From positions 1-32,000 of the forward strand of contig JAPZAR010000018.1 in the NCBI GenBank assembly GCA_027460535.1: a stretch of 32,000 bases of DNA. The letters are read 5' to 3'. Source of the DNA: Candidatus Methanoperedens sp. Lineage in GTDB: Archaea; Halobacteriota; Methanosarcinia; Methanosarcinales; Methanoperedenaceae. Positions 4,091 through 21,955 of this stretch are shown one piece after another (position 1 is the first letter of the stretch; each line of letters starts with the position of its first letter). The notes under the pieces were generated by a model that saw only the letters and a list, made by a program, of their open reading frames with translations, was not told where the DNA came from and made no database searches. Position numbers and translations under genes: made by a program.

Positions 4091-4211
4091 AAAGATTGTA
4101 CAAATGTACAAAAAAGCAAGAGAGCAAAAGAGCGATTGTAAACCAGAATGAGTGTACAATTGTACAAATGTATAAATAATAACATTAATATATAGATGCG
4201 GGGGGCGTGGG

Positions 4212-4438: not shown

Positions 4439-4738
4439 ATGTTAGATTTTGAAACAGATTTGCTGGAAGCAACTTCAAAACTTGGTTATGATAAAGGGGA
4501 AATACTGCACAGTGCTCTTAAAATGTATCTGGACGCCAATAAGGAGCTAAAGGAAAGACTTGCCGTAGAACTATATAAAGATGGCAAAATCAGTCTTGGG
4601 AAGGCAAGTGAAATAGCGGACATATCGTATGAAGAAATGAAAGAGCTTTTAATTAAGAATAATGTGGAGATTAGGAGGGGACCTGTATCTCTCAAAGAAC
4701 TGAAGAAAAGGGCAAAAGAATTAGCAGAAATATTATAG
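4439..4738 (+). CDS. UPF0175-family antitoxin-like protein
   Basis: 99-aa ORF. AVELYKDGKISLGKASEIADISYEEMKELL is typical of UPF0175 HTH proteins, which pair with DUF3368 PIN-like genes. The partner gene lies immediately downstream. Confidence 0.8.
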   Translation: MLDFETDLLEATSKLGYDKGEILHSALKMYLDANKELKERLAVELYKDGKISLGKASEIADISYEEMKELLIKNNVEIRRGPVSLKELKKRAKELAEIL

Positions 4739-4779
4739 CTGATACCGGTTTCGTAAGCTCTCTTCTGAAAATCGACCGT

Positions 4780-5193
4780 TTGTATATAATATCCAGACTT
4801 GGAAGGGTTAGCATTACCACAGAGGTATACGAAGAGCTAACAAGGTGCAGGCATCTGATAAAGCCGCTCATTAATGAAATTCAAAATGGAAATATCGTGC
4901 TAATGGAATCGGGTGATTACTCAAATTTGCAGAAAAAATATCCCAAGCTTGGGGCAGGCGAACTCAGCGTAATCGCTTCTGGAGAGGACATGATAGCTTT
5001 TATAGAAGATAGGGACGCTGAGGCAGCCGCAAGAAAAGAGGGCTTGAAGGTGTATAATATTCCCGAAGTGCTGCTTGCATGCAAAATGAAAGAACGAATT
5101 AAGAGGTCGGAGATTGTAGAAATAATCAACGAACTCAGGGAAAAGGATGGATACGCATTCAAGGAAGATATTGAGATGGAATTGATCAAATAA
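4780..5193 (+). CDS. DUF3368/PIN-like toxin partner of UPF0175
   Basis: 137-aa ORF from TTG 4780. The PIN-like N-terminal similarity (NIIADTGFVSSLLKIDRL) continues in frame upstream to about 4729. The frame opens at 4675, and no ATG/GTG/TTG occurs before 4780. The gene may therefore be start-less, damaged, or use an ATT/ATA start. Confidence 0.7.
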   Translation: MYIISRLGRVSITTEVYEELTRCRHLIKPLINEIQNGNIVLMESGDYSNLQKKYPKLGAGELSVIASGEDMIAFIEDRDAEAAARKEGLKVYNIPEVLLACKMKERIKRSEIVEIINELREKDGYAFKEDIEMELIK

Positions 5194-5405
5194 TATTTGG
5201 TCAATCTGGTCTTTTGCCAAAAATTCGCGGCGAACAGGGTCTCCAATCAAAATAAGACCATAGCCCTTCAAATCCAGCAGCCCCATCACCCTCTTTCTCT
5301 CGCCAGCCATCTTGAATCTATAGCAGCGCTGTCGCCCAACTAAGCAGGCCGATTCGGGCCGGGCGGCGGGGGGTTTGAGGTGGGGTGGTTGCCAGGAGGT
5401 ACATT

Positions 5406-5449
5406 GGCGCCGAGGGATTAATATTTTTGAAGTGATAAATGTGTGGCGC
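5406..5449 (-). repeat. Interspersed repeat family, copy 4 (core)
   Basis: GGCGCCGAGGGATTAATATTTTTGAAGTGATAAATGTGTGGCGC. Confidence 0.75.
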
Positions 5450-5577
5450 TTTACACCGCCTTTATCTGCGGCTTCTTTTATTTCCTGAGAAGGTCGCCAT
5501 GCTTCCCTGCTCATCTCCACAGAAAATGCAGGGTATTCAATTTACGCAGGTTGTAGCCTTTCATAGAACGAGAGGTT

Positions 5578-5638
5578 GCTTCGGGAACATATCGGCGCCG
5601 GAGGATTAATATTTAAAGAGTTATAAATTGTGGGCGCC
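5578..5638 (-). repeat. Interspersed repeat family, copy 5
   Basis: GCTTCGGGAACATATCGGCGCCGGAGGATTAATATTTAAAGAGTTATAAATTGTGGGCGCC is a near-exact reverse complement of 175-235. Confidence 0.85.
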
Positions 5639-5810
5639 TTTCTTTTATATCGAAGAGGGACATGACTACATTTTAAAATCCAGCGTTCACTACATCCGCG
5701 AGTGAATATAACCTTTGTGCATAATCATATAAATAAGAATCCACCAATCTGATAAGTGAGTATACCATGCATATCGAATATCCTATATCCCTATTGTCAA
5801 GGAGGCAAGA

Positions 5811-6047
5811 ATGCAAAAAAGATTGATCATATCTGACCCCAAAGTGATGATGGGCAAACCGGTCATCGAAGGAACCCGCATTACAGTTGAGATGATCCTG
5901 GAGAAGCTTTCTGCAGGCGAAACAGTGGAACAGATACTGGAAGCCCATCCCCGACTAATGGAAGAGTCAATAAGAGCGGCTCTTGCATTTGCAGCGCGGG
6001 CTTTACGTGCAGATGTGGTATATCCGGTCGCTGAGGCCGTTTCGTGA
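5811..6047 (+). CDS. DUF433-family antitoxin-like protein
   Basis: 78-aa ORF with GGAGG 5 nt upstream of the ATG. ISDPKVMMGKPVIEGTRITVEMILEKLSAGETVEQILEAHP is the typical DUF433 signature. Confidence 0.8.
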   Translation: MQKRLIISDPKVMMGKPVIEGTRITVEMILEKLSAGETVEQILEAHPRLMEESIRAALAFAARALRADVVYPVAEAVS

Positions 6048-6172
6048 ACGTCCTGGCAGATGAGAATGTTGATGCGATTCGTGCTAAATTTTCGCCATGG
6101 TGGAGCGGATCATATGCAGGCAATAGAGCTTCTGGGCAGTCTTTGAGAGATCTGAAATCGAATCAAAGCTGA
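6044..6172 (+). pseudogene. Stump of a DUF5615 (Mut7-C/PIN-like) partner of DUF433
   Basis: The GTG start overlaps the DUF433 stop in a GTGA overlap. The N-terminus VNVLADENVDAI matches the usual (M)xxLADENV start of DUF5615. After about 12 aa the similarity is lost, or moves to another frame (FRHGGADHMQAIE). The ORF stops after 42 aa. Confidence 0.35.
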
Positions 6173-6384
6173 AACAAGCAAGAAGGATCATGTCATTGAA
6201 GAACGCCGCTGTAGGTGAAGACAGGCTGATCAAGCAAACTGAAGCACAAGAAATGCTAAAGGATGCGGCTTGTTGAATGGGTCGAAAATAAGCTTGGAAA
6301 ATAATCCACAAAATAAAAATATTTCTTGCAAAGTATTATTATTCAGGACGTATTCTGTAACCCTATTAAAACGGTGATGTATAT

Positions 6385-9300
6385 TTGTTAAACTCCCTCC
6401 TCTCCTCCCTAAAACCGCGCCAGCTCGAAGCCATCAAACACACCCAGGGTCCCCAACTGATCCTCGCAGGCGCAGGTACAGGCAAGACCACGACCATCAC
6501 AGCCAAGATCGCGAACATGGTCGAAAAGGAAGGCATCGACCCCTCCCAGATACTAGCCCTTACCTTCTCCAAAGAAGCCGCAAGGAACATGCGCGAAAAA
6601 GTCGAGAAACTCCTTCAGGGAAAGGAAGTGATCGTTAAAACTTTCCACTCATTCTGCGCCGAGCTCATCAGGGATAATGCTGACAGATGCAAAGTTCCCG
6701 GCGATTTCAAGATATTCGAGGAAATTGATTCAGCCATTTTCATATTCAGGGAACTCGGGACAGATGCAAGGACCGCCAGCCTGTACGCGAATACGATCGG
6801 AAAATCCAAAGACCTGAATATTTCAATGGACAAATTCAAAGAATTTCTTGAAAAGCTTAAAAAACAAGTTCAGGATATCGAAAAAGATGAGAGCAAGTGG
6901 AAGGAACTATATCGCCAATCCAAATTCAAGCTCAATACCTTCCATCTTCAGGAATACAAAGACAAAGAAGATAAGAAGGCAAAACAGGCAGAGAAAAAAC
7001 GATATTCTGAATTCATAGACCTCTATGAAGAATACCAGAAATATTCAAACTTCATATCAGCATGGGAGAAATATGAAGAAAAGAAATCAGCTATAGGCGC
7101 ACTGGATTACGGCGACCTTAATAAGATTGCACTCTGGTATCTTGATGTGTACGGCACGCAGGAGTTGAACGACACATTCCGCTACATCATCATTGATGAA
7201 TTTCAGGATACCAACTATGTCCAGTTCGAGCTGATCAAGAAGCTCACAGCGGCGGATAATAACATAACAGTGGTGGCAGATCCAAACCAGGCCATCTATG
7301 CATTCCGCGGAGCATATACCAATAATATCGATGAGTTCAAAAAGCAATTCACCCTTTCAGACAAAGACATCGTATCTCTGGATGTCAGCTTCAGGTCGAC
7401 TAATAAGATTCTCAGAGTCGCCCACACTCTGATCGAAAAGAACTATAGAGAGGAAAAAAAGAAAGATTGCCAGCTTCTAAAAAACCACAAAGATATTGAA
7501 GGTGAGAACGTCCGTATCATTGAAACAGAGGACGATAACGAAGAAGCAAGAGCCATAGTGGAGAAGATTGAGTTTTTCCTGGCACAGGGTATTCCTCCAA
7601 AAGAGATCGCCGTATTATATAGGACTCACGCCCAGGGACGAAAGGTGAGGCAGGCTCTTGAAAACAGGGGTTTGCCTTTCCGGGTCAAAGACGATACCGA
7701 TTTCCTGAAGCAGCCTGAGATAAAGACTGCGCTGGCTTATTTGTATGTGATCAACAATATCTCCCATCCCGCAGCCCGCGGGACAGAGGCATGGTGGAGG
7801 ATATTCCATTACAATAATGCATTGAGCCAGGAAGATTCCATCAGGATAGGAGAATACCTCAAGAAAAAATGGGTCTCGTTCCAGGAAGCCATTTATCACC
7901 ATATTGGAGAACTCGGACTTTCAAAGAGCGGTCTTGAGACCATAAGCAACGTTAAAAAGAGGATAGATTCGCTTTGCGGCAAGAAGAACCTTGATGTATC
8001 AGACCTGATCCTTGAGGTCTATGACCTGTCAGGTCTCTCAAGGCAATTCGCCCACACTGACACAAAGCGCAGCAGGGAAGCGCTTTTGAACCTCAGGCAG
8101 CTTCATGAATTGGCCAGTAATTTTGAGGAGTTCCATGGAAAAGACCTGAGCCTGTTCATAGATTATCTTGAGATACTTGATGAGATGGACGGTAACCCGC
8201 CGCCTGCAAGAATAGCGGATGAGGATGCCATAAACCTCATGACCGTACATGCTGCAAAGGGGCTTGAATTCAGCGTGGTATTTCTCACGAACCTTGCAAA
8301 AGATAAATTCCCTCTATACCGGGGGGGCGCAGAGCCGCTGGTTCCTCCTGAACTGATGGATCAGTACAGGGATATCTTTGAGGATAAATCCATCAAAGAT
8401 ATTGAGAAAGCAGTCAGGGAGCGGAAAAGGGAAATAAAAAAGGAAGAGGAGAGGCGGCTTGCATATGTAGCGCTAACAAGAGCAAAAGAACATCTTTTCC
8501 TGACACTGGCGACCAGATACACAGAGGATGAAAGAGAGCCCTCCGAGTTCCTCACGGATATTGGATACAACAACTGGAGAGCCGGGGGGAACATCAAAGT
8601 CGGGGATCTCAATTATTTCAGGGATACCGATACCAAAGTCAGGGAGATGATAAAGGATAGCGCGCTTGAACGGGAAAAGGCAATGCGTAAGAGGCTTCTT
8701 ATAGAGTCGCTTGATTCAGGAGATTTTAATGAAATCATGAAAAATGCGCTGCTGTATCAGGCTCTGAAGGTCGAGGGTACGCCGGATTTTAAGGAGCTTA
8801 TTGATTCCAGCTGGCCAAAAATAGACCCTACCGATGATGCTGACAGGATTTTAGCGAAGATAAAGGAAAAGAAGAACGGATTGAAATTCAATCCCGCAAG
8901 TATGACTTTTAGCTATTCCTCAATAAGTACCTATGAGCGATGCCCGCGCCAGTATGAACTCGCGGAGCTTCTCAGGATGCCTGCACGCGATTCCGAAGAT
9001 TCTACCGGAGCCATGAGAAGGGGGAATTTTGTTCATAAGGTGCTTGAGATAGCAGTGAGTGAAAAGATTGCCACAAAAGAAAGGTTGTATGAGATAAGAG
9101 ATACAGTCGCAAAAGAACCTGATTTCAGGGGCGTTGACATTGAAACTGCAACTGCAGCGCTCGATGTATTCTGGGAGCGGAACAAAAATAGAATGGCAAA
9201 TAACCTGATGGTTGAGCAGAGATTCGCTGTACAGCTTGGAGGTTTTACTTTCAAGGGGTTTATTGACCGGGTGGATCTAATCCCCGGGACAAAGGATGAG

Positions 9301-9648
9301 ATCGAAATCATCGATTACAAGACAGGGAAATCTGAACCTGGACCTGCTGAGCGCTCCCGACAGCTTTTGCTGTATGCCCGGGGTATAGAGCATGTTTATC
9401 CAAAATACAGGGTGAAAAGACTCACTCTGGAACAGCTCGGTCTTCCCAATCCCAGGACTTTTGAACTAAAGGATGGGAAGTTTGAGAGCGCGGGCAGTTC
9501 ACGGATGGAAGGGCTTGATGGGAATGCTATTATTGATATGATTGAGATCGCAAAGTCGATAGCACATGATTATGAACATGGGTTTGAGAGGACGAAGGAT
9601 GAGAAAGCTTGTGAAGAGTGCGGATTTAGGTTGTATTGTGGAGATTGA
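6385..9648 (+). CDS. UvrD/PcrA-type SF1 helicase fused to a C-terminal 4-Cys PD-(D/E)XK (Cas4/AddB-like) nuclease
   Basis: 1087-aa ORF with a TTG start and GGTGA upstream. Helicase motifs: LAGAGTGKTTT, IIIDEFQDTN, VVADPNQAIYAFRGA, SFRSTNKIL, MTVHAAKGLEFSVVFL, RRLAYVALTRAKEHLFL. Nuclease motifs: YERCPRQYEL, GNFVHKVLE, GFIDRVDL..IEIIDYKTGK, RQLLLYA, CEECGFRLYC. Confidence 0.93.
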   Translation: MLNSLLSSLKPRQLEAIKHTQGPQLILAGAGTGKTTTITAKIANMVEKEGIDPSQILALTFSKEAARNMREKVEKLLQGKEVIVKTFHSFCAELIRDNADRCKVPGDFKIFEEIDSAIFIFRELGTDARTASLYANTIGKSKDLNISMDKFKEFLEKLKKQVQDIEKDESKWKELYRQSKFKLNTFHLQEYKDKEDKKAKQAEKKRYSEFIDLYEEYQKYSNFISAWEKYEEKKSAIGALDYGDLNKIALWYLDVYGTQELNDTFRYIIIDEFQDTNYVQFELIKKLTAADNNITVVADPNQAIYAFRGAYTNNIDEFKKQFTLSDKDIVSLDVSFRSTNKILRVAHTLIEKNYREEKKKDCQLLKNHKDIEGENVRIIETEDDNEEARAIVEKIEFFLAQGIPPKEIAVLYRTHAQGRKVRQALENRGLPFRVKDDTDFLKQPEIKTALAYLYVINNISHPAARGTEAWWRIFHYNNALSQEDSIRIGEYLKKKWVSFQEAIYHHIGELGLSKSGLETISNVKKRIDSLCGKKNLDVSDLILEVYDLSGLSRQFAHTDTKRSREALLNLRQLHELASNFEEFHGKDLSLFIDYLEILDEMDGNPPPARIADEDAINLMTVHAAKGLEFSVVFLTNLAKDKFPLYRGGAEPLVPPELMDQYRDIFEDKSIKDIEKAVRERKREIKKEEERRLAYVALTRAKEHLFLTLATRYTEDEREPSEFLTDIGYNNWRAGGNIKVGDLNYFRDTDTKVREMIKDSALEREKAMRKRLLIESLDSGDFNEIMKNALLYQALKVEGTPDFKELIDSSWPKIDPTDDADRILAKIKEKKNGLKFNPASMTFSYSSISTYERCPRQYELAELLRMPARDSEDSTGAMRRGNFVHKVLEIAVSEKIATKERLYEIRDTVAKEPDFRGVDIETATAALDVFWERNKNRMANNLMVEQRFAVQLGGFTFKGFIDRVDLIPGTKDEIEIIDYKTGKSEPGPAERSRQLLLYARGIEHVYPKYRVKRLTLEQLGLPNPRTFELKDGKFESAGSSRMEGLDGNAIIDMIEIAKSIAHDYEHGFERTKDEKACEECGFRLYCGD

Positions 9649-9733
9649 AAATAAAAATTTATCAAAAGAACCTATCAATCTATATATAAAGAAATCATAG
9701 ATATATTCCTAAAAATATGATGCTGTGAACAGT

Positions 9734-9838
9734 ATGGAAGAAATAATCGTAGATGACACTTATAAAATCCATTTCTCAAAAAAATTAGTAGATCGGCTCA
9801 ATATTAAGCCCAGAGATAGGTTATACGATAACGTATAA
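9734..9838 (+). pseudogene. Possible truncated AbrB/SpoVT-type antitoxin fragment
   Basis: The 34-aa ORF MEEIIVDDTYKIHFSKKLVDRLNIKPRDRLYDNV resembles the 'xIxIPKxIRexLgIKpGDxL' half of a swapped-hairpin domain. It is too short to be complete. Confidence 0.25.
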
Positions 9839-9869
9839 CTTATATGTGTGTAAATGCATTGTTATTCTT

Positions 9870-10076
9870 ATGTGCCATGCTGCCGTAGAGGTTAAAAAAT
9901 GGGGTAATTCCCTCGGAATAATCATCCCAAAAGACAAAATCACTGAACTGGGATTATCTGAAAAGGATATTATCGATATAGATATTTTAAGAAAAGAAAA
10001 AGTAAGCGGATTTGGTATAGCGAAGGGGAAAAAGCCGTTTGAAAGGGAAGAAACCGAACATGAAGACCTCTGGTGA
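9870..10076 (+). CDS. vapB: AbrB/MazE/SpoVT-family antitoxin (VapB-like)
   Basis: VEVKKWGNSLGIIIPKDKITELGLSEKDIIDIDI is a typical MazE/AbrB motif. The ORF opens at GTG 9846, but ATG 9870 is the more plausible start. The stop lies 1 nt before the vapC ATG. Confidence 0.8.
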   Translation: MCHAAVEVKKWGNSLGIIIPKDKITELGLSEKDIIDIDILRKEKVSGFGIAKGKKPFEREETEHEDLW

Positions 10077-10077
10077 T

Positions 10078-10464
10078 ATGGTGTACCTGATAGATACCTA
10101 TGCCTGGATTGAATATTTCACAGGTTCAAAAAACGGGGAGAAAGTTAAAAAAATAATAGAAGATGAGAACAATATCATCATCACTCCTGAATGCTGCCTC
10201 GCGGAGATAAAAGGTTGGGCTATCAGGGAAAACATGGATTTTGAGGAGCTATATACAATCATAAGGAAAGTTTCCAATATCCAGTGTATCTTGACTCAGG
10301 ATTGGCTGGAAGCTGCAGCCATTCGAAGTGAGCTTCGAAAAACCAGAAAAGGCTTTGGTATGATAGATGCTCTTATCATCGCTCAGCAGAAAAGATTGGG
10401 CCACAAAGTAGTCAGCGGCGATCCTCATTTTGAACATTTAAAAGATGTGATCTATATAAAATAG
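10078..10464 (+). CDS. vapC: PIN-domain toxin (VapC)
   Basis: The N-terminus MVYLIDTYAWIEYF carries the first PIN acidic residue. ITPECCLAEI, GMIDALIIAQQ and SGDPHF fit a PIN fold. The ATG at 10078 follows the vapB stop directly. Confidence 0.85.
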   Translation: MVYLIDTYAWIEYFTGSKNGEKVKKIIEDENNIIITPECCLAEIKGWAIRENMDFEELYTIIRKVSNIQCILTQDWLEAAAIRSELRKTRKGFGMIDALIIAQQKRLGHKVVSGDPHFEHLKDVIYIK

Positions 10465-10535
10465 ATAAATGTGCCTTTTAATATGCTGACATATTCTTTA
10501 AGCTGTTCAAGTTTGGATGCAATCTCATCATTCAC
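10452..10535 (-). pseudogene. 27-codon stump of a HEPN (DUF86-like) toxin partner of the MNT gene
   Basis: The GTG start overlaps the MNT stop in a GTGA overlap, as in intact MNT-HEPN pairs. VNDEIASKLEQLKEYVSILK resembles DUF86 N-termini. The ORF ends after 27 aa, running 13 nt into the 3' end of vapC. No Rx4-6H motif region is present. Confidence 0.4.
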
Positions 10536-11002
10536 GTGAAACCAACCTCGGCAATCCTTTTCAGGGTTTCTTCCGTATGCCTATTTATGTAATATTTTTG
10601 ATCCATATACATAGAAAGGATTTTTGTTTCAAACTTTACTCTATCTATCTCATTGGATTTTAAAATAATTCCATCTTTTATAATATTATGTGCCAAAAGC
10701 AGAGGCGCATCGTTTAAAACAACCAGATCTATTTTATTTTTCTTAATTAAAACCGCTATTTCACTAATTAATTTTAATTCCAGATCGAAGCGGTCTTTTT
10801 TAGACAATTTTTCATCCAGCAGGACTCCAATATCAACATCGCTCAATCTACCTGTATCGCCCCTGACCGTTGACCCAAAAAGATAAGCAAGTTTTATGCT
10901 ATCTTTGCTGCTGAAATATTCTGTTAGTTCTTTTTCATATTGTATCATGAATACTCTATAATTTGTTTTTGCTAATATATGTTCTTCGCTCATGTGCAGC
11001 AT
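10532..11002 (-). CDS. Nucleotidyltransferase-domain protein (MNT-type antitoxin)
   Basis: 156-aa ORF. LAYLFGSTVRGDTGRLSDVDIGVLLD is the GS..(D/E)xD minimal nucleotidyltransferase signature. Confidence 0.85.
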   Translation of the reverse strand: MLHMSEEHILAKTNYRVFMIQYEKELTEYFSSKDSIKLAYLFGSTVRGDTGRLSDVDIGVLLDEKLSKKDRFDLELKLISEIAVLIKKNKIDLVVLNDAPLLLAHNIIKDGIILKSNEIDRVKFETKILSMYMDQKYYINRHTEETLKRIAEVGFT

Positions 11003-11052
11003 CTTCAGGCGGGAGTATAACAGGCGCAGGTATCGGTGGGGTTTGTATTGGG

Positions 11053-11178
11053 TTATAACTATTTAAATCACGGCGCCGATACGTTCCCGAAGCATCCTCA
11101 TTCCTCAAAACCAAAGCCTGCCAGGTCACACATATAATACAAACCGCAGATGAACGCAGATGAACGCAGATTTGTTAC
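11053..11178 (+). repeat. Interspersed repeat family, copy 6 (long form ending in a 3x GAACGCAGAT-type tandem)
   Basis: TTATAACTATTTAAATCACGGCGCCGATACGTTCCCGAAGCA...AAAGCCTG...AAACCGCAGATGAACGCAGATGAACGCAGATTTGTTACC is collinear with copy 1 (186-297). Confidence 0.8.
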
Positions 11179-11420
11179 CAGGGAATCGCATATCTCTACC
11201 ATTATTTTACCTATGTTTCAATATCAATCAAAATACCGCGCCGCCGTCCTCCTCTTCTTTCCCGCAGGTGTGACAGCAAGAAGGGGAGGATGTACTTGCG
11301 AGCAAGATTGTTTGGGTTGATGAAATAGTGCTTGATTATTTCTTTTTCGATTAACTATTTTCTGTTCATCTTCCATTCGGGCAGCGATTTGCATTTGACC
11401 GCTGTTGACATCCTAAATAT

Positions 11421-12950
11421 TTAATTGTTTGAAATAACTTTTATTATATTTGTAGGGCTTTCAGAAATCTTCCAATTGTCACCGTTTGCAAGAATATATG
11501 TATGGTCTGATACTTTTTCTAATCCCCCAGCAGTATTATTACCTATTATTATCGTGAATATTCTCGCATCATTTTCATTCTTTAATTGATTCCACTTTTG
11601 GATAAGCATTTCTTCGCTTATTTGAGAAAGCCCATCTGTAATAAATAATAAGTCAGCACTTTTCCATTTCTTTTCTTCTGTAACGTTGATTCCAGAAGCG
11701 AGTGCTGTGTTGAAGTCTGTTCCACCCCCAAAACTCATACTCATAAAATTGAGGAATTCCGATGCCATTTTTGTCTTGTTTGTTAATTCTATTTCATGGG
11801 TTTGGTTTGTTGATGAGAATAAGATTACCTTTACATCACGATCTTTTTTAAGCATTATTCTCACAATTGAAAGCATAAGAGCTTTCGCTAATATTTCTGG
11901 CTCTCCGTGCATCGAGCCAGAAGTATCCACTAAAGCTACAACAGGTCCACGTTTCCTTTTCTTAGGGGGACCACCAGCCCAGTATTTTCCCCTTAACTGA
12001 TATGTTAAGAGTTTTCCTTCACTATAATTAGCGAAAAATACGTTTTTCAGAATATTATCCTTAAGTTTGACCAACTCTATTGGGAGTATGTGTTGAATGT
12101 CTTTTGATATTCCAACGGAGAATACTTCTGAAGATCCAAAGTTAGTTATTGTAAGCCTCTTTGAACCGTATTCTAGTTCGATTCTGCCCAATAGTTCTAT
12201 CATTTTCTTTATTTCTCTGCTGTGTTCTAATATGCGCGAATATTGTGTAATATGTTCTAAGTATTCTCTATGTAGATCAACTAGCGAATAATCCCAAAGC
12301 CGTCCGGGGAACAGAAGATAAAGTAGTTCTATGGTTTCAAGCTCTTCTCTAATTTTTTCTATTTCCTGTGATATTTGATTAATAAATCCGATTTGAACTA
12401 TCTCGTTTAACATTTCTCCAGATTTTTCTTTTGCATGGAAGTCGTTGAAGTATGAGGATAGGATTTCTCCTTCTGGTGGTATGCCCTCTGTTCTTCTTCC
12501 CCAAAGTTTCAATGTTTCTTCTACAATTTTGCTGAATTCCTCAAGTAGTTTTTTTAAAACATTATCCGTTTTGTCTTCCATTTCCTTTTGATATTTTATG
12601 AAGTTCTCCATAAGGTCGAATATTTGGTTAAGAACTGCTTTTGCTGCCAGAATAGCGGTGATTTTGTTTTGACCAGCCAATTCCTTTATCTCTGTCCACA
12701 GGAGAGAATTTTTTATCGTTGATAGAATTGAATAAAAAGCACCGTATCTCTCAACGAATTTCGGAAGATCTTTAATTTCGATTGGAGCAGCATTTATCAA
12801 TTCTCTGATTACAATTTCAGATATTTCCTCCCTCATTCTCCGTGGGATTTCTCTTGGCGTGGCGATAAATGTGTGCATTTCTTCTTCTGCCAGTAGAGAA
12901 CGAACTGACCATTCGGGTGTATCGATTTCATCCGTGGTTTCTTCAGGCAA
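11421..12950 (-). CDS. viaA: ViaA-like von Willebrand factor A (VWA) protein
   Basis: 509-aa ORF. The TTG start has AGGAGTGG 7 nt upstream, 18 nt after the ravA-like stop. ViaA-like blocks are GRLWDYS, ILPIELVKL and LLTYQLRG. The MIDAS site is intact: VALVDTSGSM, FGGGTDF, LLFITDG. Confidence 0.9.
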   Translation of the reverse strand: MPEETTDEIDTPEWSVRSLLAEEEMHTFIATPREIPRRMREEISEIVIRELINAAPIEIKDLPKFVERYGAFYSILSTIKNSLLWTEIKELAGQNKITAILAAKAVLNQIFDLMENFIKYQKEMEDKTDNVLKKLLEEFSKIVEETLKLWGRRTEGIPPEGEILSSYFNDFHAKEKSGEMLNEIVQIGFINQISQEIEKIREELETIELLYLLFPGRLWDYSLVDLHREYLEHITQYSRILEHSREIKKMIELLGRIELEYGSKRLTITNFGSSEVFSVGISKDIQHILPIELVKLKDNILKNVFFANYSEGKLLTYQLRGKYWAGGPPKKRKRGPVVALVDTSGSMHGEPEILAKALMLSIVRIMLKKDRDVKVILFSSTNQTHEIELTNKTKMASEFLNFMSMSFGGGTDFNTALASGINVTEEKKWKSADLLFITDGLSQISEEMLIQKWNQLKNENDARIFTIIIGNNTAGGLEKVSDHTYILANGDNWKISESPTNIIKVISNN

Positions 12951-12968
12951 TGTTAACCACTCCTAACA

Positions 12969-14420
12969 TCAGAACCCGGAATTTCTGTGCACTGGCTTTA
13001 TAATAGGAATTTCGATTTTTACTTCATTTACGGTGATACCATTTTCTATTCTTTTTAACGTCTCCTCTACTTTGTGCACCGTTTTTATTTTATCATCGTA
13101 ATTCATCATAATGTCATGTCTATCCTTATGACTTAGCCATATGTTTGTTTCCATTAGCTGTTTCAAGCGTTCTCTTTCGCTGAATATTTTTTCTTTGACT
13201 GTTTCAAATTGCTCTTTTATTTCATTCATTTCTTTTTTATAACGTTTTAGTTGTGGTTCTGGTATTGTGGAGCCGAAATTCCAGGAGTGGTTTTCTTTTA
13301 ATTCTTTTATCAAGTCATTAAAATAAAATCTACGTATATTGTATTCATGTTTATTTTTGTCGGAGTATGGATTATTATATGTTTCATCAGGGTTTTTTGA
13401 TACGTATTCTTCAAGTTCTCTCCAACTGTTGAATTCTTTCTTCTCGTCCTGGGTCTCAATTGTTTTTGGGAATGTGTAATCTCTTGATTTTTCAGTTAGT
13501 GATTTGAGTTCCTCAGCGTCCTTCATTAATTTATCAAGGCTTACCCCCCCAGATATTGTTAAATCGATTAATAAATGCCTTATTGCATCTTTTTGTTCAG
13601 GTTTATCCCACGTCATATGCTGGAGTAATGGAACCATGGTTCTGTCTACAGATTCTCTTCCAATACTAACAGAAGCGATTTTTAATGCTTTCAGCATTTT
13701 TTTCCATCTTCTATCGGAAATATGGTGATTCATGGATCGAAGATTTTTCCTCAGCGCTAAAAGTGCATCAAGAACATCTTCTTCTATTTTAGCCTCATTT
13801 GCCTTTGTTTGAATCTCGTTGATAAATCGGATAGTTATTTTGCTCTGAATGTTCATCTTTTCAGTGTCACCAAGCAATAAATCTCTGAAATTAGTTTCAT
13901 CCTGAATGTATCCCATAGAATATCGAAATAGGAATCTGTCATATAATGCCTCTAAACTCTCATCCTCTTCAGGAAGTTCGTTGGACGCTGCAAAAACCGT
14001 CAGAAGAGGCGTGTCAATAAGTTCTCTTCCATTATGGAATTTTCTCTCGTTTAATAGTGTTAGCAGACTGTTAAGAATGGAGCTATTTGCTTTGAATATC
14101 TCATCTAAGAAGCATATATGGCTGGTTGGAATGTATCCCTCTATTTTCCTTTTGAATTCATCTTCTTGAAGGGACTTGATAGATAACGGTCCAAAAATCT
14201 CATCTGGGGTTGTAAATCTTGTCAAGAGATAGTAAAAGAAATTTCCCCCATCAATGGATTCGCATAACTTGAGTGCTAAGAGACTTTTTGCTGTTCCAGG
14301 AGGTCCCAGGAACAGTATATTTTCTCCAGATAAAATGCTCAATAATGCTCCAGCGATTTCTTCATCCCTCTCTTTGAAATTTTTCTCAAGGTTCAATTTT
14401 ATTTCTCTTAGATTTTGCAT
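12969..14420 (-). CDS. ravA: RavA-like MoxR-family AAA+ ATPase
   Basis: 483-aa ORF that is collinear with E. coli RavA through the AAA+ core. Shared blocks: ILFLGPPGTAKS (Walker A), YLLTRFTTPDEIFGPLSI, CFLDEIFKA (Walker B), VFAASNELPEEDESLEALYDRFLFR, ISDRRWKK. The C-terminal half is divergent. Confidence 0.92.
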   Translation of the reverse strand: MQNLREIKLNLEKNFKERDEEIAGALLSILSGENILFLGPPGTAKSLLALKLCESIDGGNFFYYLLTRFTTPDEIFGPLSIKSLQEDEFKRKIEGYIPTSHICFLDEIFKANSSILNSLLTLLNERKFHNGRELIDTPLLTVFAASNELPEEDESLEALYDRFLFRYSMGYIQDETNFRDLLLGDTEKMNIQSKITIRFINEIQTKANEAKIEEDVLDALLALRKNLRSMNHHISDRRWKKMLKALKIASVSIGRESVDRTMVPLLQHMTWDKPEQKDAIRHLLIDLTISGGVSLDKLMKDAEELKSLTEKSRDYTFPKTIETQDEKKEFNSWRELEEYVSKNPDETYNNPYSDKNKHEYNIRRFYFNDLIKELKENHSWNFGSTIPEPQLKRYKKEMNEIKEQFETVKEKIFSERERLKQLMETNIWLSHKDRHDIMMNYDDKIKTVHKVEETLKRIENGITVNEVKIEIPIIKPVHRNSGF

Positions 14421-14491
14421 TTTTACTTCTCCATTCGGACATATTTCTGATAGCTAATAAAATGTAATTCTGAGTCAATTTCGGAAAACAT

Positions 14492-16954
14492 TTATCCCCA
14501 TACCTCAGCAATCTTCGCCTTTATCTTCCCCTCGAAAAGCTCGATCAGTTTCTTATTCGCATCGACCAATTTCTGCTCCTCTTCAATTCGGGCAACGATT
14601 TCCTTTTGTATTTCTATTGCAGGAATACTTATTTTTATAGAGGTTATCATATTTTTCGTTAAATATCTAGTTAACCCGCCTATTGATTGTTGCTTTAGAG
14701 ATAATAGACTATTTTGCAAATAATAATTTAATAAAGGATAGGTTAACTTAGTCTTAAATTTGTCTTTAATAGTTATTATATAAGTTCTCTGATACGCATT
14801 AAATTTACCTTTACAATATTTAACATCAAAATCCCCAGACGCATTATTCCCACTTAATAAAAGGGCTTCACAATCAAATGCATAACTGTTTATCCTGAAT
14901 ATTTCTGTTTTTGAGCATGTAAAAAAAGGATATATTCCATCTCTTTCTGCTGCATTAGCATCAAGTTTCCCAGTTTCTATTTCACAAGCATCCCCTAAAT
15001 CCACCACCTCCCATCCCTCATCCACCTTAATCCTCGGCTTATAGTTCTCCACCACCTGCCGCGCCCCATCTATTATCTTCTGGTAGCCCTCGATCTCAGC
15101 CACAATCTCCTGCTGGACTGACAGGGGCGGGAGGGGGATTTTAATTTGTTTGAGTTCTTTTACAGAGACAACATTTTGAATAGCTGCACCAGAAGTATTT
15201 CTAAAATACTTTTGTTGAATATTTTCTTCTTCAAGAATTAATTTTAAATAGATAGGCAAAATTTTTTCAAATTGAGGTGTGATTTTTAAAAGTGCTTGAT
15301 TAATAATACCCTTTTTTGCACTTTCAGGAACAATCGCAACTTTCCCCATAGTCCCTGAACAACTAATTATAATGTCGTTTGGCTTTATTGCAAAGCCGAT
15401 CATTTCATTGTATTTGGCTTCATCAATATAATAATCTCCAATTTCAAAATTATTATTTATTGCGTGTTTTTGTTCATAAACTTTATAACCGTCCTTTACA
15501 AAAATTTCTTTCTTAAGAGAACCGCCAAAAGGACCTCTTTTAAAGAATGTCACCTCCCCCAATTCCACCATCGGCCAATCTTTATGCGAATGAACCACAG
15601 TATCCCTGTACCTATCTCCCGATAAGTAATAATCCCCAATTCCAGCGATTTTTGTCTTTAAAACCCTGTGAGCTAATTTGCTTTCATCCTCACTAAACTC
15701 ACATTCCTTCCCTTCTTGCAAACTCTTCTTATATCTTAAAATCACATCAAGCGCTCTTGGAAAATCATTCTTATCAATCGCTCTTCTCTGCGCGCCAAGG
15801 TCAAATCCCTCATTTTCAATTTTCACAAAAAGAACGTCCTGCGCCCTTTTAGCCAGGCTTTTATCCATCAGCAAAATACTTGTCTTAACCCCTGAATACG
15901 GCTGGAAAACTCCTTGTGGTAAAGATACAACCGCGAAAAGATAACCGCTTTCCACAAGCAGTTTGCGAAGCGCTTTATATGCATTCGCAGACTGGAAAAT
16001 GATTCCCTCAGGCACGATAACTCCCGCCCTTCCGTTTATGGTAAGATGTTCCATGATATAATCCACGAACAGGACTTCCGAACGGTTCGCCTGGACTGAG
16101 AAGCGTTTATGCGGACGGATTCCGCCCTTCGGCGTCATAAAAGGCGGATTTGCCAGAATCACGTCATAGGTCTCGTTCCATTTCTCCTCGCTCGTGAGCG
16201 TATCGTATTCGTAAATTTTCGGGGTCTGGAAACCGTGCAGATACATATTCACAAGCGAAAGCCTCACCATATCAGGAGAAATGTCATAACCTACAAGGCT
16301 GTTCATCAATCTTTTGCGCTCATCCATGGTCAAACAATCCCCTTTTCTCTCCTTCGTATTCTGCTTGAGGATGTGCTTGTATGAGGAAATCAAGAATCCG
16401 GCTGTAGCACAGGCCGGGTCAAGGATTGTCTCATTTTTCTTCGGGTCAACCACTTCGACTATGAAATCAATAATATGCCGTGGTGTCCTGAACTGTCCCG
16501 CATCACCCTGCGAGCCAAGCACTGACAGGAGATATTCAAAAGCATCCCCCAGTTTCTCGCTATGGTCATATTTGAACTCGTTTATTTCTTTTAAAAAGCT
16601 TTTCAACGTTTCTGGATCGCGGTATGGAAGGAAGGCATTCTTGAAAATATCTCTGAAAAGCTGCGGGATATTCTCGTTATGGTTCATTTTGGCGATGGCT
16701 TCGCTGTATAGTGCTATGAGTTCAAATCCTCCCAGACGCGGGTCAAAAATGCGCGACCATGTGAATTTCTCGAATTCTCCGGTGAAGAATGCTGCTTTAC
16801 CTCCGAGCTCCTGCGATTCTTTATCCATGTCGTCCATGAACTTGTAGATGAGCGCGATTGTTATTTGCTCGACCTGTGATTTCGGGTCTGGCACTTTTCC
16901 TACAAGGATATCGCGGGCGTTATCGATTTTTCTTTTTGTTTCCTGATCTAACAT
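14492..16954 (-). CDS. hsdM: Type I R-M methyltransferase fused to the specificity subunit (HsdM-HsdS fusion)
   Basis: 820-aa uninterrupted ORF. HsdM part: N-terminal KSQVEQITIALIYKFMDD, FRTPRHIIDFIVEVV, ILDPACATAGFL, ILANPPF, C-terminal tail GDYYLSGDRY. The HsdS part follows directly. It has two target-recognition domains (from WPMVELGEV and WEVVDLGDA) separated by the conserved helices LPPLSVQQEIVAEIEGYQKII and IPAIEIQKEIVARIEEEQKLV. Confidence 0.9.
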   Translation of the reverse strand: MLDQETKRKIDNARDILVGKVPDPKSQVEQITIALIYKFMDDMDKESQELGGKAAFFTGEFEKFTWSRIFDPRLGGFELIALYSEAIAKMNHNENIPQLFRDIFKNAFLPYRDPETLKSFLKEINEFKYDHSEKLGDAFEYLLSVLGSQGDAGQFRTPRHIIDFIVEVVDPKKNETILDPACATAGFLISSYKHILKQNTKERKGDCLTMDERKRLMNSLVGYDISPDMVRLSLVNMYLHGFQTPKIYEYDTLTSEEKWNETYDVILANPPFMTPKGGIRPHKRFSVQANRSEVLFVDYIMEHLTINGRAGVIVPEGIIFQSANAYKALRKLLVESGYLFAVVSLPQGVFQPYSGVKTSILLMDKSLAKRAQDVLFVKIENEGFDLGAQRRAIDKNDFPRALDVILRYKKSLQEGKECEFSEDESKLAHRVLKTKIAGIGDYYLSGDRYRDTVVHSHKDWPMVELGEVTFFKRGPFGGSLKKEIFVKDGYKVYEQKHAINNNFEIGDYYIDEAKYNEMIGFAIKPNDIIISCSGTMGKVAIVPESAKKGIINQALLKITPQFEKILPIYLKLILEEENIQQKYFRNTSGAAIQNVVSVKELKQIKIPLPPLSVQQEIVAEIEGYQKIIDGARQVVENYKPRIKVDEGWEVVDLGDACEIETGKLDANAAERDGIYPFFTCSKTEIFRINSYAFDCEALLLSGNNASGDFDVKYCKGKFNAYQRTYIITIKDKFKTKLTYPLLNYYLQNSLLSLKQQSIGGLTRYLTKNMITSIKISIPAIEIQKEIVARIEEEQKLVDANKKLIELFEGKIKAKIAEVWG

Positions 16955-17016
16955 TTTTTAACCTTCGTTTAATAATTTGCAGAAATAATTACAAACATTA
17001 TGCTCATTCATAACCA

Positions 17017-19536
17017 TCACACGAACTTATAGAGAGAAACATAATCTTTCACATACTCAGGTATCATCTCACACCACTTTCTCACTTCCCGGAACTCCTC
17101 CATCGAAAACTGGGAATTTGTCGCAAAACGCCCGAATTCTTTTGATTCCATAATATCCCTCACTTCATGGTCTATAATATATGCTTTTATAAAATTCCTT
17201 ATGAGCGGTACTTCCCTGCTTTCCGGTTTATAAATAGATATGAATCTCTCAACTTCCTCATCAAGCAATTCCTCTTTCGTCTTAAATACAGTAATCCTTC
17301 CAAATATCTTCTCTATGATCTCCCGCAAACTCAGGCGGCGGTCAATTCTCAACGATTTTCTCAACTTCTCAAGATTATAGAATTCTTCAGGTTTTTCAAA
17401 AATCTTACTTTTTATATATTCTTCAATGGCATCGAAATTTTCTTTTTCAATATTCTCTTTTATGAAGATATTATTCCTCACAGTATTCTCGAATTTATCA
17501 AAGAACATACGGTCTATTTTCATTCCATCCATGCCGATAGCGTATTCCTCAAGGCTTGTTAGAGGGTCGAAACTGAGATTCTCATATTCACTTGTCCTTT
17601 CCTCACCCTCACCGCCTCCTGTATATGTAGTCCTTGGAGGCAATTTCAAAACTTCATTATAATTATATTTCTCTTCAAAGTACTCGCAATTCGCAAAAAA
17701 ATCAAAAAGCTTGAATTTTTCTTTAGCTTTCTTTATGATTTCGTTATCGTGCCCATTTTTCATGGAAAATGCAAAATCATACTTTCTTGTACCCCTTCCT
17801 TTTATCTGGATAAAATCCGTTGGTGAAAATATAGGGCGCATCAAGCATATATTCAAAATATCCTGGCAGTCATAGCCTGTCGTCATCATTCCAACGGTTA
17901 CGCATACCCTTGTTTTGCTCGTTTTATAACCTTCCAGAAACCGCGAATTGCCGGATAGGTTATTACTTGTATCGGTAAAATTGATAGTAAATTGCTGCGC
18001 ATCCTGAACGTTTGACGTTATCTGAAGAGCAAAATCTGAATTATATTTTCCAGGATATAATTTATCTGCAAACTCATTCATTACCTGTGTTATTTTTGAG
18101 GCATGGTTCTGGCTTACGCAAAAAACAATGGTTTTGCCAATCTCTCCACTTATTGGATCTCTGAGAGCATTTTCAATGAAAGTCTTGCAGAATATTTTGT
18201 TTGTTTCTTCAGAGAGAAATTTGTTCTCAAAATCCTTATGAAAATATATCTGCTCTTCTTTTATTCCTTCAGTATTTTCTACGATGATAGAGTAACCTTT
18301 TTCTGAAAGTAACTGTGTGGTGATTTCGGTTCGCGCATCAACAGCAACTGGGTTCACAAGATATCCATCCCTCACAGCGTCAATAAGACTGTAGCGAAAA
18401 GTCGGATTCCCGCTCTCGCAGCCAAATGTGATATAGGTGTCCCTAAGCTGTCTTCGTTCCCATTCGCGCGGGTCTTTCTTACTTACTTTATCAGGGTCTA
18501 AATACTTCAGATAATCTTTAGGTGTGGCAGTAAGACCGAGCTTATAGCCAACAAAATACTCAAAAACAGCCCTGCTGTTCCATCCGATCGAGCGGTGGGC
18601 TTCATCCGAAATCAATAGGTCAAAATCCGTGGGTGAAAAAAGCCTCTGATATTTATTGTCAAAAGAAAGGCTCTGGACGGTGGAAACGACAATCTCAGCT
18701 TTTCGCCAATCGTCCTTATTTTCTTTATAAATTATAACTTTGTAATCATTTTTTAGCCATTTAATAAAATTTTTCTTCGCTTGGTCTTCAAGTTCTAATC
18801 GGTCAACAAGAAAAAGCACCCTCTTTGCATTACCTGATCTTAAAAACAGTTTGATAACCGCGGCTGAAATCAGAGTCTTTCCTGTTCCTGTCGCCATTTC
18901 AAAAAGGAACCTGTCGTTCCCATCTTCTACAGATTCCTGCAAAGCATGAACCGCATCCAACTGATACGGTCTTAAGAATTTCAGTCCGGATTCATGTATG
19001 TAGTCTGCTCTTGTTTTGTCATTATTCCAGCGCGGGTCTTTATCAAAAAGAGGGTTCTGGATTCGGGTAATGTAATCCTCTCCAACTATTTCGCTTACAA
19101 GAGTTGAAGGATTGGGCGCAAAAGAAGCTGTATGATAAAGCGATTCTAATGTTGGGAATTTTGTGATAACACTGGGATTTCCACGCTCTAAATCCCAGAA
19201 ATAATGCAAATTGCCATTTGAGAGTATCACGAATCTCACATTTTGCGATTGCGCGTATTTCCTTGCCTGCTCTTTCCCATCAAGAGGATTTTTATCTTCA
19301 GATTTTGCCTCTACTATTACAAATGGGAAGCCCTTTTCATTTAGAAGAAGAAAATCTGTAAATCCATTTTCTGTTTTTTCAAAATCATTCCCAAATTCAT
19401 CAAGGTTTTTTCTGGTGATTTTGACATTATTCTCTAAAACGATATTGGCTTTTCCTTTTTCATCATCAAAAAACCTCCAACCCGACTGTTCAAGGAGTTT
19501 ATTGATCTTAATGCGCGCTTTTGCCTCTTTTTGCAT
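17017..19536 (-). CDS. hsdR: Type I restriction enzyme R subunit (HsdR; PD-(D/E)xK + SF2 helicase + EcoEI_R_C-like tail)
   Basis: The ORF opens at TTG 19548, but ATG 19536 has GGAGG 6 nt upstream. Nuclease motif: FTDFLLLNEKGFPFVIVEAKS. Helicase motifs: MATGTGKT, LLISDEAHRS, QIKGRGTR. Confidence 0.92.
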   Translation of the reverse strand: MQKEAKARIKINKLLEQSGWRFFDDEKGKANIVLENNVKITRKNLDEFGNDFEKTENGFTDFLLLNEKGFPFVIVEAKSEDKNPLDGKEQARKYAQSQNVRFVILSNGNLHYFWDLERGNPSVITKFPTLESLYHTASFAPNPSTLVSEIVGEDYITRIQNPLFDKDPRWNNDKTRADYIHESGLKFLRPYQLDAVHALQESVEDGNDRFLFEMATGTGKTLISAAVIKLFLRSGNAKRVLFLVDRLELEDQAKKNFIKWLKNDYKVIIYKENKDDWRKAEIVVSTVQSLSFDNKYQRLFSPTDFDLLISDEAHRSIGWNSRAVFEYFVGYKLGLTATPKDYLKYLDPDKVSKKDPREWERRQLRDTYITFGCESGNPTFRYSLIDAVRDGYLVNPVAVDARTEITTQLLSEKGYSIIVENTEGIKEEQIYFHKDFENKFLSEETNKIFCKTFIENALRDPISGEIGKTIVFCVSQNHASKITQVMNEFADKLYPGKYNSDFALQITSNVQDAQQFTINFTDTSNNLSGNSRFLEGYKTSKTRVCVTVGMMTTGYDCQDILNICLMRPIFSPTDFIQIKGRGTRKYDFAFSMKNGHDNEIIKKAKEKFKLFDFFANCEYFEEKYNYNEVLKLPPRTTYTGGGEGEERTSEYENLSFDPLTSLEEYAIGMDGMKIDRMFFDKFENTVRNNIFIKENIEKENFDAIEEYIKSKIFEKPEEFYNLEKLRKSLRIDRRLSLREIIEKIFGRITVFKTKEELLDEEVERFISIYKPESREVPLIRNFIKAYIIDHEVRDIMESKEFGRFATNSQFSMEEFREVRKWCEMIPEYVKDYVSLYKFV

Positions 19537-19629: not shown

Positions 19630-19658
19630 AATCCGTGTAAATCCGTCAAATCCGTGTT
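19630..19658 (+). repeat. Three tandem 9-10 bp units (AAATCCGTN)
   Basis: AATCCGTGTAAATCCGTCAAATCCGTGTT lies in the hsdR upstream intergenic region. Confidence 0.7.
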
Positions 19659-19794
19659 CTAAACCCAATAAATACACGTGGACTTAATTCCCCACATAAA
19701 ATCCGCAAATCTCTTCTGCCTCACCCCGTCGCTCTCGAACAGCGACCAGTATTTTCACCCACCCACAACCTCACTCCTCCCCAAAAAATCCTTA

Positions 19795-20040
19795 TCAAAG
19801 GTCGCTATCTTCATAATTATATAAAATTTCATCGACCTTTCCACTCAGATTTCGATGCTGGTTACCAAAATGTTCAGGTTTGATTTCTAAAATGCTTCTT
19901 TTCTTTTTTTCTCCAAACCTTTCACTAATTTCATTTGTCACTCTTTCTCCAATGGATGCCCCGCAGCCTTTAATTTCTGCCCGCATTTTTTCTAACGCCC
20001 TTTCACCTTCATCGCAATTCTCTTCCCAAACTCCCTGCAC
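19795..20040 (-). CDS. Small ORF, possibly a PF02697-like orphan antitoxin remnant
   Basis: The 81-aa ORF overlaps the flavodoxin 3' end by 49 nt; an alternative start, MRAEIK, is at 19986. The pattern E..L.K.....GASIGERV...I..R.GEKKKRSILEI...FGN loosely resembles archaeal VapB-like antitoxins. There is no toxin downstream. It may be non-coding. Confidence 0.25.
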   Translation of the reverse strand: MQGVWEENCDEGERALEKMRAEIKGCGASIGERVTNEISERFGEKKKRSILEIKPEHFGNQHRNLSGKVDEILYNYEDSDL

Positions 20041-21890: not shown

Positions 21891-21955
21891 GAACGCGGAT
21901 GAACGCCGCAACAAATCTGCGTTCATCTGCGTTTATCTGCGGTTTTTTTATTTTG
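21891..21955 (+). repeat. GAACGCAGAT-family element forming an imperfect 16-bp inverted repeat followed by a T7 run
   Basis: GAACGCGGATGAACGC (21891-21906) pairs with GCGTTCATCTGCGTTT (21919-21934), followed by ATCTGCGGTTTTTTTATTTTG. The element lies in the 102-nt gap between iscS and the IscU-fusion gene. The T-run is on the strand antisense to the operon. Confidence 0.7.

Follow-up and report, generated by a model that had tools for sequence, protein, structure and literature searches.

The window examined here is a 32,000-nucleotide (nt) stretch of a Candidatus Methanoperedens contig, and our subject is a block of four minus-strand open reading frames (ORFs) spanning 11421-19536, in which a type I restriction-modification (R-M) set is followed by a pair of genes encoding a RavA-like MoxR AAA+ ATPase and a ViaA-like von Willebrand factor A (VWA) protein (Table 1). 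The initial annotation had read this arrangement as a candidate R-M-coupled composite defence module in a toxin-antitoxin (TA)-rich island of an archaeon. Its gene layout was reproduced from the ORF list and the sequence, including the spacers of 62, 71 and 18 nt, and the R-M set was confirmed as hsdR plus a fused hsdMS gene by Pfam, PADLOC and motifs. The TA-rich surroundings of the pair were likewise borne out by the neighbouring gene families, the RavA-like protein is 100% identical to a Candidatus Methanoperedens protein at NCBI, and literature searches found no description of an R-M-linked RavA-ViaA unit. The coupling itself did not hold up when relatives were compared, and the R-M genes and the pair are likely to be neighbours in the island and nothing more. 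Genomic contexts of relatives are labelled L### throughout.

Table 1. Positions of the genes, spacers and boundary elements of the four-gene block in the window (aa, amino acids).
Feature	Position	Strand	Basis
hsdR, type I restriction subunit, 839 aa	17017-19536	-	Pfam, PADLOC, motifs
hsdR-hsdMS spacer, 62 nt	16955-17016	-	Holds TA insertions in close relatives
hsdMS, fused N6-adenine methyltransferase and specificity subunit, 820 aa	14492-16954	-	Pfam, PADLOC, motifs
5' region of the cassette, candidate promoter/regulatory site	14421-14491	-	Conservation across the subclade
RavA-subfamily MoxR AAA+ ATPase, 483 aa	12969-14420	-	Pfam, PDB, AF2/Foldseek
ravA-viaA spacer, 18 nt	12951-12968	-	AGGAGTGG ribosome-binding site for the viaA-like TTG
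ViaA-like protein, 509 aa	11421-12950	-	Pfam VWA, NCBIfam, BLASTP, motifs
Degenerate duplicate of the hsdMS 3' conserved region (...IAARMEDEQKIVN...)	11330-11397	-	Local alignment against shuffles
Interspersed intergenic repeat, ~110 nt	11219-11329		Copies in other Methanoperedens contigs

According to Pfam, HsdR consists of an N-terminal HSDR_N domain (PD-(D/E)xK nuclease), ResIII (superfamily 2 helicase) and Helicase_C, and the D..EAK nuclease motif, GTGKT and DEAH are all present. It matches REase_I of PADLOC at 6.6e-55 and the EcoAI/FtnUII family of NCBIfam with 241 bits, which is under the cut-off. The hsdR ATG at 19536 is preceded by GGAGG; the mechanical ORF list runs on to a TTG at 19548. 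HsdMS contains N6_Mtase (5.5e-54) and two copies of Methylase_S (residues about 457-640 and 646-804), has the catalytic motif NPPF at residue 269 and two target-recognition domains (TRDs), and is matched in PADLOC by MTase_I (1.8e-97) and Specificity_I. In classical type I R-M systems HsdR, HsdM and HsdS are separate, whereas M and S are joined here in a single ORF. The same M-S fusion is found in relatives (812-813 aa; the L096 copy is split into 185 and 613 aa), and it is a variant type I architecture that gives no ground for exclusion from type I. The usual stoichiometry of the type I methyltransferase is M2S1, and the fusion, which puts two TRDs on each methyltransferase chain, does not fit a plain M2S1 scheme in an obvious way. 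Compared with L005, the TRD regions are ~64% identical and the M part 87%, which is the usual pattern of TRD swapping. Relatives of HsdR at 86-94% identity are found on other Methanoperedens contigs, and the ratio of nonsynonymous to synonymous substitution rates (dN/dS) of HsdR is 0.08-0.11. Outside this group, proteins that resemble HsdR over its full length with 67-73% identity (P0132-P0240) were found in Patescibacteria (Yanofskybacteria, Magasanikbacteria, Paceibacterota) and in Elusimicrobiota, which implies that this R-M family was recently transferred between domains. Overall, the hsd genes appear to form a functional type I system, and the family to which they belong is highly mobile.

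The RavA-like ATPase is built of an AAA+ core with its lid (residues 1-291) and a helical bundle (295-311 and 388-463), with an alpha/beta insert (312-387) that occupies the place of LARA in E. coli RavA. Its Pfam matches are bpMoxR/AAA_5 and AAA_lid_8. The catalytic residues are intact, as had been claimed: Walker A GPPGTAKS (39-46), Walker B D106-E107, R162 (YDRF) and R237/R238 (SDRR). In the PDB, residues 5-291 match E. coli RavA with E = 1.8e-59, and the next MoxR protein (2r44) follows at 5.9e-07; by BLASTP, identity to E. coli RavA across the AAA+ core and lid amounts to 40% (2e-65). For the AlphaFold2 model of the protein (pLDDT 82.9), the top four Foldseek matches are E. coli RavA over the full length (~480-515 columns), with TM values of 0.64-0.65. 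The NCBIfam RavA model (NF010054) scored 238 bits against a cut-off of 681, and only its positions 15-301 of 498 were aligned. Neither LARA_dom (PF20265) nor ATPase_RavA_C (PF12592) gave a Pfam match in the RavA-like protein or in its Methanocella homologues, and the control with E. coli RavA in the same Pfam library returned them at 1e-39 and 1.8e-23, respectively. Within the insert, the C2H2 zinc-finger pattern CxxC-x12-H-x5/6-H is kept by 27 of the 30 aligned family members; all four zinc ligands (residues ~318-350) are gone in the window protein and its two closest relatives, P0003 and P0004.

In the ViaA-like protein, an alpha-helical N-terminal domain precedes the VWA domain at the C-terminus (Pfam VWA_2/VWA/VWA_CoxE), and its metal ion-dependent adhesion site (MIDAS) was found to be complete (D342-x-S-x-S346 with S344, T411 and D439), in agreement with the initial annotation. 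It scored 154 bits against the NCBIfam ViaA model (NF008230, cut-off 500), with model positions 87-472 of 487 aligned, and is 28% identical to E. coli ViaA over ~290 residues (7e-33; BLASTP, alignment 216-490). The gene starts with a TTG 6 nt past AGGAGTGG, which itself stands right after the ravA-like TGA stop, as previously described, and the start codon position is ATG in L005, L088, L006 and L089. This arrangement suggests translational coupling of the ravA-like and viaA-like genes. The description of the two proteins as clear RavA/ViaA orthologues can be kept only in part: the 40% identity of the core, the full-length fold and the motifs agree with it, but LARA and RavA_C are absent and both proteins, although RavA and ViaA are their nearest NCBIfam families, score far below the equivalog cut-offs. 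Judged from its sequence, the pair belongs to the RavA subfamily in a broad sense, yet it is not orthologous to the LdcI-linked enterobacterial system. The RavA subfamily already takes in archaeal-virus proteins, for example ATV p618 (PMC3893208).

Contexts of the close subclade were obtained by 12 exact-protein look-ups. L005 (RavA-like protein 88% and HsdR 94% identical) has the order hsdR-HEPN-MNT-hsdMS-ravA-viaA in a chromosomal setting different from that of the window. L092 (HsdR 93%) is collinear with L005 except that the last ~60 nt of hsdMS, ravA, viaA and ~0.8 kb are missing; its HsdMS has a premature C-terminus (...EQENKLEDIFI, then a stop) at the missing segment, which looks like a deletion scar. 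In L096 (HsdR 88%), hsdR-hsdMS is followed by a UvrD helicase, with no pair. L097 (89%) carries an intact pair, upstream of which only a frameshifted hsdMS 3' remnant of ~115 nt and an unrelated 220-aa gene are found, with BrnTA and FitA/PIN downstream. In L088 (89%), the segment in common with the window is exactly 14501-11415, which begins at the hsdMS stop codon and ends 6 nt beyond the viaA stop, and the DNA on either side of it is unrelated. In L006 (74%), the pair lies amid genes for a CYTH protein, a dGTPase-like HD protein (PADLOC 4.7e-29), a TPR protein and an AriA/PtuA-like ABC ATPase, and an HNH protein is encoded nearby in L090. Both sets are thus present in two close loci (one shared event), the R-M genes without the pair in two and the pair without the R-M genes in three; that is, each half exists without the other among relatives that are 74-94% identical.

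Comparison of the pair with L097 and L088, which lack hsd genes, gave dN/dS of 0.16-0.26, and the pair accordingly stays under purifying selection where hsd is gone. This result also bears on the idea that the pair no longer serves a function in this genome and is carried along while it decays, for which the lost zinc ligands, the deletion of the cassette in L092 and the patchy distribution may be cited. However, both ORFs are full length with all catalytic motifs intact, dN/dS remains at 0.16-0.26 in four independent comparisons, and the start codon and ribosome-binding site are conserved. We consider such decay highly improbable.

The segment shared with L088 delimits the pair as a discrete cassette of ~3.1 kb. 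At its 5' end, the 71-nt gap behind hsdMS contains TCCGAAATTGA (14475-14485), a TATA-like TTTTATTA (14455-14462) ~35 nt ahead of the ravA-like ATG, and a Shine-Dalgarno GGAG (14429-14432). These 5' 70-80 nt are conserved in 6/6 members of the 73-100% subclade, and the DNA upstream of them varies, being hsdMS, an hsdMS remnant, unrelated DNA or another ORF. As synonymous sites are saturated at the distance of L006 and L089, the conservation of this stretch points to a functional non-coding element. From its conservation, the element is probably the pair's own promoter or operator. Descent of the element from an hsdS 3' end, which would have implied an older hsdS-ravA link, was considered and rejected, since the element, when aligned locally with four hsdMS 3' ends, did not outscore shuffled sequences (p ~0.04-0.9 over 20 tests). 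No convincing terminator was found in the hsdMS-ravA gap, where the only T4 run is without conservation in L005. An Rfam search of the entire window gave no matches, hence there is no known RNA element in the gaps.

Behind viaA, the degenerate duplicate of the hsdMS 3' region gave an alignment score of 61, against a shuffle maximum of 29, and 0/1000 shuffles reached it. It is shared with L005 and L097 and is not present in L088 or L006. As judged from the alignment, this ~70-nt duplicate is a scar left when the cassette came to lie at the hsdMS end. The interspersed repeat that follows the cassette lies outside genes and marks variable junctions of hsd-associated regions; further copies are found in L005 (10701-10742 and 11172-11331), L092 (10231-10402) and L096 (18135-18210 and 18783-18842).

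For the wider archaeal family, one genome per GTDB species was scanned, with genes called by a simple longest-ORF procedure. This census yielded 58 archaeal loci with full-length RavA-like relatives (41-59% identity) in Methanosarcina, Methanocella, Methanofollis, Methanoregula, Methanomassiliicoccales and a few Asgard archaea, and in nearly all of them a ViaA-like gene lies immediately 3' of the ATPase gene. HsdR/HsdMS homologues were detected within 10 kb on either side in none of the 58 loci (tblastn, E < 1e-5). When 150 non-redundant neighbours (±4 genes) were pooled, each PADLOC/Pfam family was limited to one or two of them at most, and type I R-M components were absent. The enrichment of homologues near defence genes that had been proposed as a check of the composite module was therefore not seen in this census of loci and neighbours.

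In Methanosarcina, two paralogous ravA/viaA-like loci were observed, each with its own genus-wide synteny amid housekeeping genes (AhpC/peroxiredoxin, ThiF and aconitase plus citrate synthase in one case; MarR, TrmB and an ABC transporter in the other). The two paralog sets comprise L036, L041-L052 and L056-L058, and L017, L023, L027-L031, L035, L038 and L046; the Methanosarcina ViaA-like proteins (~550-700 aa) are longer than that of the window. A relative at 51% identity (L091) is located behind an orphan N6_N4 methyltransferase gene and a few genes of an Ech/Mbh-type (complex-I-like) hydrogenase cluster (neighbours at 1-6625 and 8849-11419); this may recall the link between E. coli RavA-ViaA and Nuo, and coincidence is possible. 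No GTDB species representative carries a relative above 59% identity, the JGI metagenome scan returned a single matching contig (52% identity), and a scan of viral contigs for close relatives, which would have pointed to a virus or Borg origin, gave none. AAA+ cores of the RavA type are frequently encoded by phages, archaeal viruses and plasmids. The plasmid and phage matches were also considered as a clue to R-M coupling and were set aside as uninformative, being distant bacterial proteins in unrelated contexts. The archaeal relatives are annotated only as 'AAA family ATPase' and 'VWA domain-containing protein', and a by-product of the present analysis is a large unannotated archaeal RavA/ViaA-like family with a C2H2 zinc-finger domain in place of LARA.

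Since the pair forms a cassette of its own and relatives keep either half alone, the four-gene adjacency does not amount to a system. We consider it likely that the R-M genes and the pair are simply juxtaposed in a TA/defence island, without functional coupling in vivo. Several observations weigh against this reading. The window and L005 are different chromosomal contexts, and both contain the four-gene block with one and the same junction and remnant; between these two, the synonymous divergence (dS) is 0.28-0.33 for the pair and, at 0.36, similar for hsdR, which fits co-inheritance since the insertion event and means that the genes have travelled together for some time. The four genes lie on one strand with short gaps, and with no convincing terminator in the 71-nt gap, co-transcription of hsd and the pair is possible. 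Every context seen in the 57-100% subclade is TA- or defence-like (hsd, L006, L097, L090), and from the hsdS 3' duplicate flanking the cassette it is conceivable that hsdS preceded the pair in the donor locus as well. Moreover, the close subclade is represented by about six contexts, several of which are on short contigs.

In a composite system of the kind that the initial annotation had proposed, the pair would be co-transcribed with hsdR-hsdMS and would act on the R-M complex; it could assemble or remodel HsdR-HsdMS, or could serve in the control or alleviation of restriction. A precedent for the latter is ClpXP, which alleviates restriction by EcoKI via HsdR. The shared strand and short gaps with no clear terminator, the preservation of the block in two contexts with matching dS, and the hsdS 3' duplication around the cassette would all be consistent with such a system. 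On the other hand, R-M relatives at 86-93% identity do without the pair (L092, L096), the pair is intact and constrained after hsd loss (L097, L088), hsd genes are near 0/58 of the wider-clade loci, and the cassette has its own conserved upstream element. In addition, HsdR homologues at 67-73% identity are widespread in bacteria, where they are known from protein matches alone. Thus, the halves separate in both directions, and a composite system is very unlikely in our judgement.

It is also conceivable that the cassette of the Methanoperedens subclade constitutes its own two-gene MoxR-VWA conflict or stress module, acting alone or in trans with defence genes nearby, and would no longer be a housekeeping chaperone like its methanogen relatives. 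All contexts at ≥57% identity are variable and TA- or defence-like (window, L005, L006, L097, L090), although any accessory gene would be expected in islands and the sample is limited to the about six contexts mentioned above. The cassette is rare and accessory, as the absence of GTDB representatives above 59% identity and the single JGI contig indicate, and the subclade has lost the C2H2 ligands that 27 aligned members retain. The C-terminal domain of the RavA-like protein has a dN/dS of 0.21-0.39, which exceeds that of the AAA+ core (0.08-0.17), but overall dN/dS is far under 1. MoxR-vWA conflict cores have been proposed (PMC7159879), and the frequency of RavA-type AAA+ cores in phages, archaeal viruses and plasmids would fit a role of this kind. 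Against it, searches with Pfam and NCBIfam found no effector domain in either protein of the pair, and residues 1-330 of the ViaA-like protein gave no effector match in Pfam, NCBIfam or PADLOC. The observation that no third effector gene stands beside the pair was confirmed in the window; no third sensor-like component (beta-propeller, iSTAND or similar) adjoins the pair in the window, L005, L006, L088 or L097, and no third gene is conserved among L006, L088 and L097. The PADLOC run that had been suggested as a check of the defence assignment (PADLOC-DB 2.0) returned no family at E ≤ 0.01 for the RavA-like or ViaA-like protein. The Pfam bpMoxR match, considered as a sign of a conflict system, was rejected as non-diagnostic because E. 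coli RavA scores alike (191 vs 194 bits). On balance, a module of this kind is unlikely, as is a defence role of the accessory subclade. Its more specific version, in which the zinc-finger-less island subclade, with its promoter-like element and its occurrence only among TA and defence genes, would be an unrecognised two-gene MoxR-VWA conflict module, possibly one that remodels with ATP and thereby controls or enhances the action of neighbouring nucleases (HsdR, for example) in cis or in trans, seems quite unlikely.

Under simple juxtaposition, the reading that we prefer, the following scheme can be drawn. Given their intact domains and motifs, the fused HsdM-S protein would methylate a bipartite target and HsdR would translocate and cut unmodified DNA. 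In characterised MoxR-VWA couples, the VWA partner acts as an adaptor that stimulates a hexameric AAA+ ring and binds, at its MIDAS, a client for maturation or remodelling (PMC3893208, PMC9489729, PMC9976466). By analogy with RavA-ViaA, NorQ-NorD and CoxD-CoxE, the RavA-like ATPase may form a hexamer on which the alpha-helical N-domain of the ViaA-like protein would dock, and the MIDAS of the VWA domain would hold a client protein for ATP-dependent remodelling or maturation. This client would not be LdcI, because the LARA domain is absent. As to the history of the locus, the simplest account is a single insertion or recombination of the cassette at the hsdMS 3' end, within a narrow lineage of Methanoperedens, with the 70-nt hsdS remnant left behind viaA. 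This event would date to the common ancestor of the window, L005, L097 and L092 and would have been followed by independent losses, with the cassette co-inherited with the R-M genes in some genomes and one half lost in others. The pair probably has its own promoter, and read-through from hsd would be possible.

The hsd locus has also received other cassettes. In the hsdR-hsdMS spacer, HEPN-MNT is inserted in L005 (3895-4867) and L092 (6054-7026), a UPF0175-DUF3368 TA pair is found in L093 (7089-7912) and L094 (2582-3405), and L096 has the split 5' part of hsdMS at this position. This spacer is an insertion hot spot among Methanoperedens relatives, and a further by-product of this study is an hsd locus in Methanoperedens on which TA modules and various other cassettes tend to land. 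Upstream of hsdR, a FitA/PIN TA remnant (19785-19908) is 83-88% identical to the intact copies of L097 and L095, which is a further sign of repeated rearrangement at the hsd locus.

Around the pair, the island contains MazE/PIN, UPF0175/DUF3368, DUF433, an MNT, a frameshifted cas1 and a UvrD-PD-(D/E)xK helicase-nuclease, and it is flanked by housekeeping genes (flavodoxin, NifU-like, NifS, DsrE, P-type ATPase and carbamoyl-phosphate synthase). The G+C content of the block is mostly 0.34-0.39, with one 1-kb bin up to 0.45, and that of the core genes 0.46-0.51; the block is therefore regarded as part of an acquired island. The cas1 gene (1971-2814, minus strand) is probably a frameshifted pseudogene, since the C- and N-terminal halves of Cas1 are matched by separate but overlapping ORFs of 152 and 153 aa. 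The 1087-aa UvrD-family helicase fused to a PD-(D/E)xK nuclease (6385-9648, plus strand) has GajB-like matches in PADLOC (7.6e-77), and no GajA-like gene adjoins it.

Several families of short repeats were also observed. A 36-nt inverted repeat (11141-11176 and 21910-21945; 97% complementary) is made of three 10-nt units (CATCTGCGTT-like) and encloses 10.7 kb with the four genes, the flavodoxin gene and the NifU-like gene. Similar units are found at 127-150, 269-293 and 419-448; L092 has them as well, in the stretch that separates its MNT gene from hsdMS. A comparable array with a 10-nt period (ACGGATTT, three times) lies upstream of hsdR at ~19640-19700. These 10-nt-unit repeats could be regulator-binding or recombination sites. 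In addition, interspersed intergenic repeats (ATCGGCGCCGGRGGATTAATATTT...) stand between island modules in both orientations (182-247, 4214-4264, 5403-5452, 5572-5640 and 11056-11108), and their GGCGCC palindrome with an AT-rich box may represent a shared promoter/operator or a cassette boundary.

If coupling to R-M were true, type I restriction would gain an AAA+/VWA remodeller, and a RavA-ViaA pair would for the first time have a role in defence. As the evidence stands, this locus is a worked example that tight same-strand adjacency in a defence island is no proof of a system, because relatives that are 74-94% identical keep each half alone.

Compared with known systems, the pair has the order (ravA, then viaA) and the tight spacing of E. 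coli RavA-ViaA, with E. coli RavA by far the best PDB match in both sequence and fold. The two share an AAA+ module with a helical bundle and an inserted domain, and a VWA partner with MIDAS and probably with a helical N-domain. However, E. coli RavA has LARA and RavA_C and the window protein has neither, so that an LdcI cage is not expected; in place of LARA, the archaeal insert is a small alpha/beta domain that is of the C2H2 type in most members and has lost its ligands in the window protein. The clients of E. coli RavA-ViaA are Nuo, Frd and LdcI (PMC3893208, PMC9489729), and these are not implied for the archaeal pair of the window. The archaeal pairs known from Methanosarcina, Methanocella, Methanofollis and Methanomassiliicoccales are full-length members of this family (43-59% / 30-53% identity) and form the same two-gene unit with the same domain layout. 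They occur in genus-level syntenic housekeeping contexts and keep CxxC...H...H, whereas the window subclade is accessory and island-borne and has lost the motif. In the proposed MoxR-vWA ternary conflict systems, a third sensor and fused effectors accompany the core (Kaur, Burroughs, Iyer & Aravind 2020, PMC7159879; iSTAND variants, PMC12839542). The window pair resembles them in its MoxR AAA+ and vWA genes, its bpMoxR match and its defence-like island, but it has neither the third component nor the vWA-linked effector. Finally, type I loci with extra genes are known, and the anticodon nuclease PrrC of the EcoprrI locus is an extra gene in an hsd locus with an established functional link to R-M. 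Here, too, an hsd locus gathers unrelated accessory genes, but these differ between genomes, and a functional link of theirs to R-M would be hypothetical. Taken together, the block is composed of known kinds of systems, namely a type I R-M system in which M and S are fused and a MoxR/VWA pair of the RavA subfamily.

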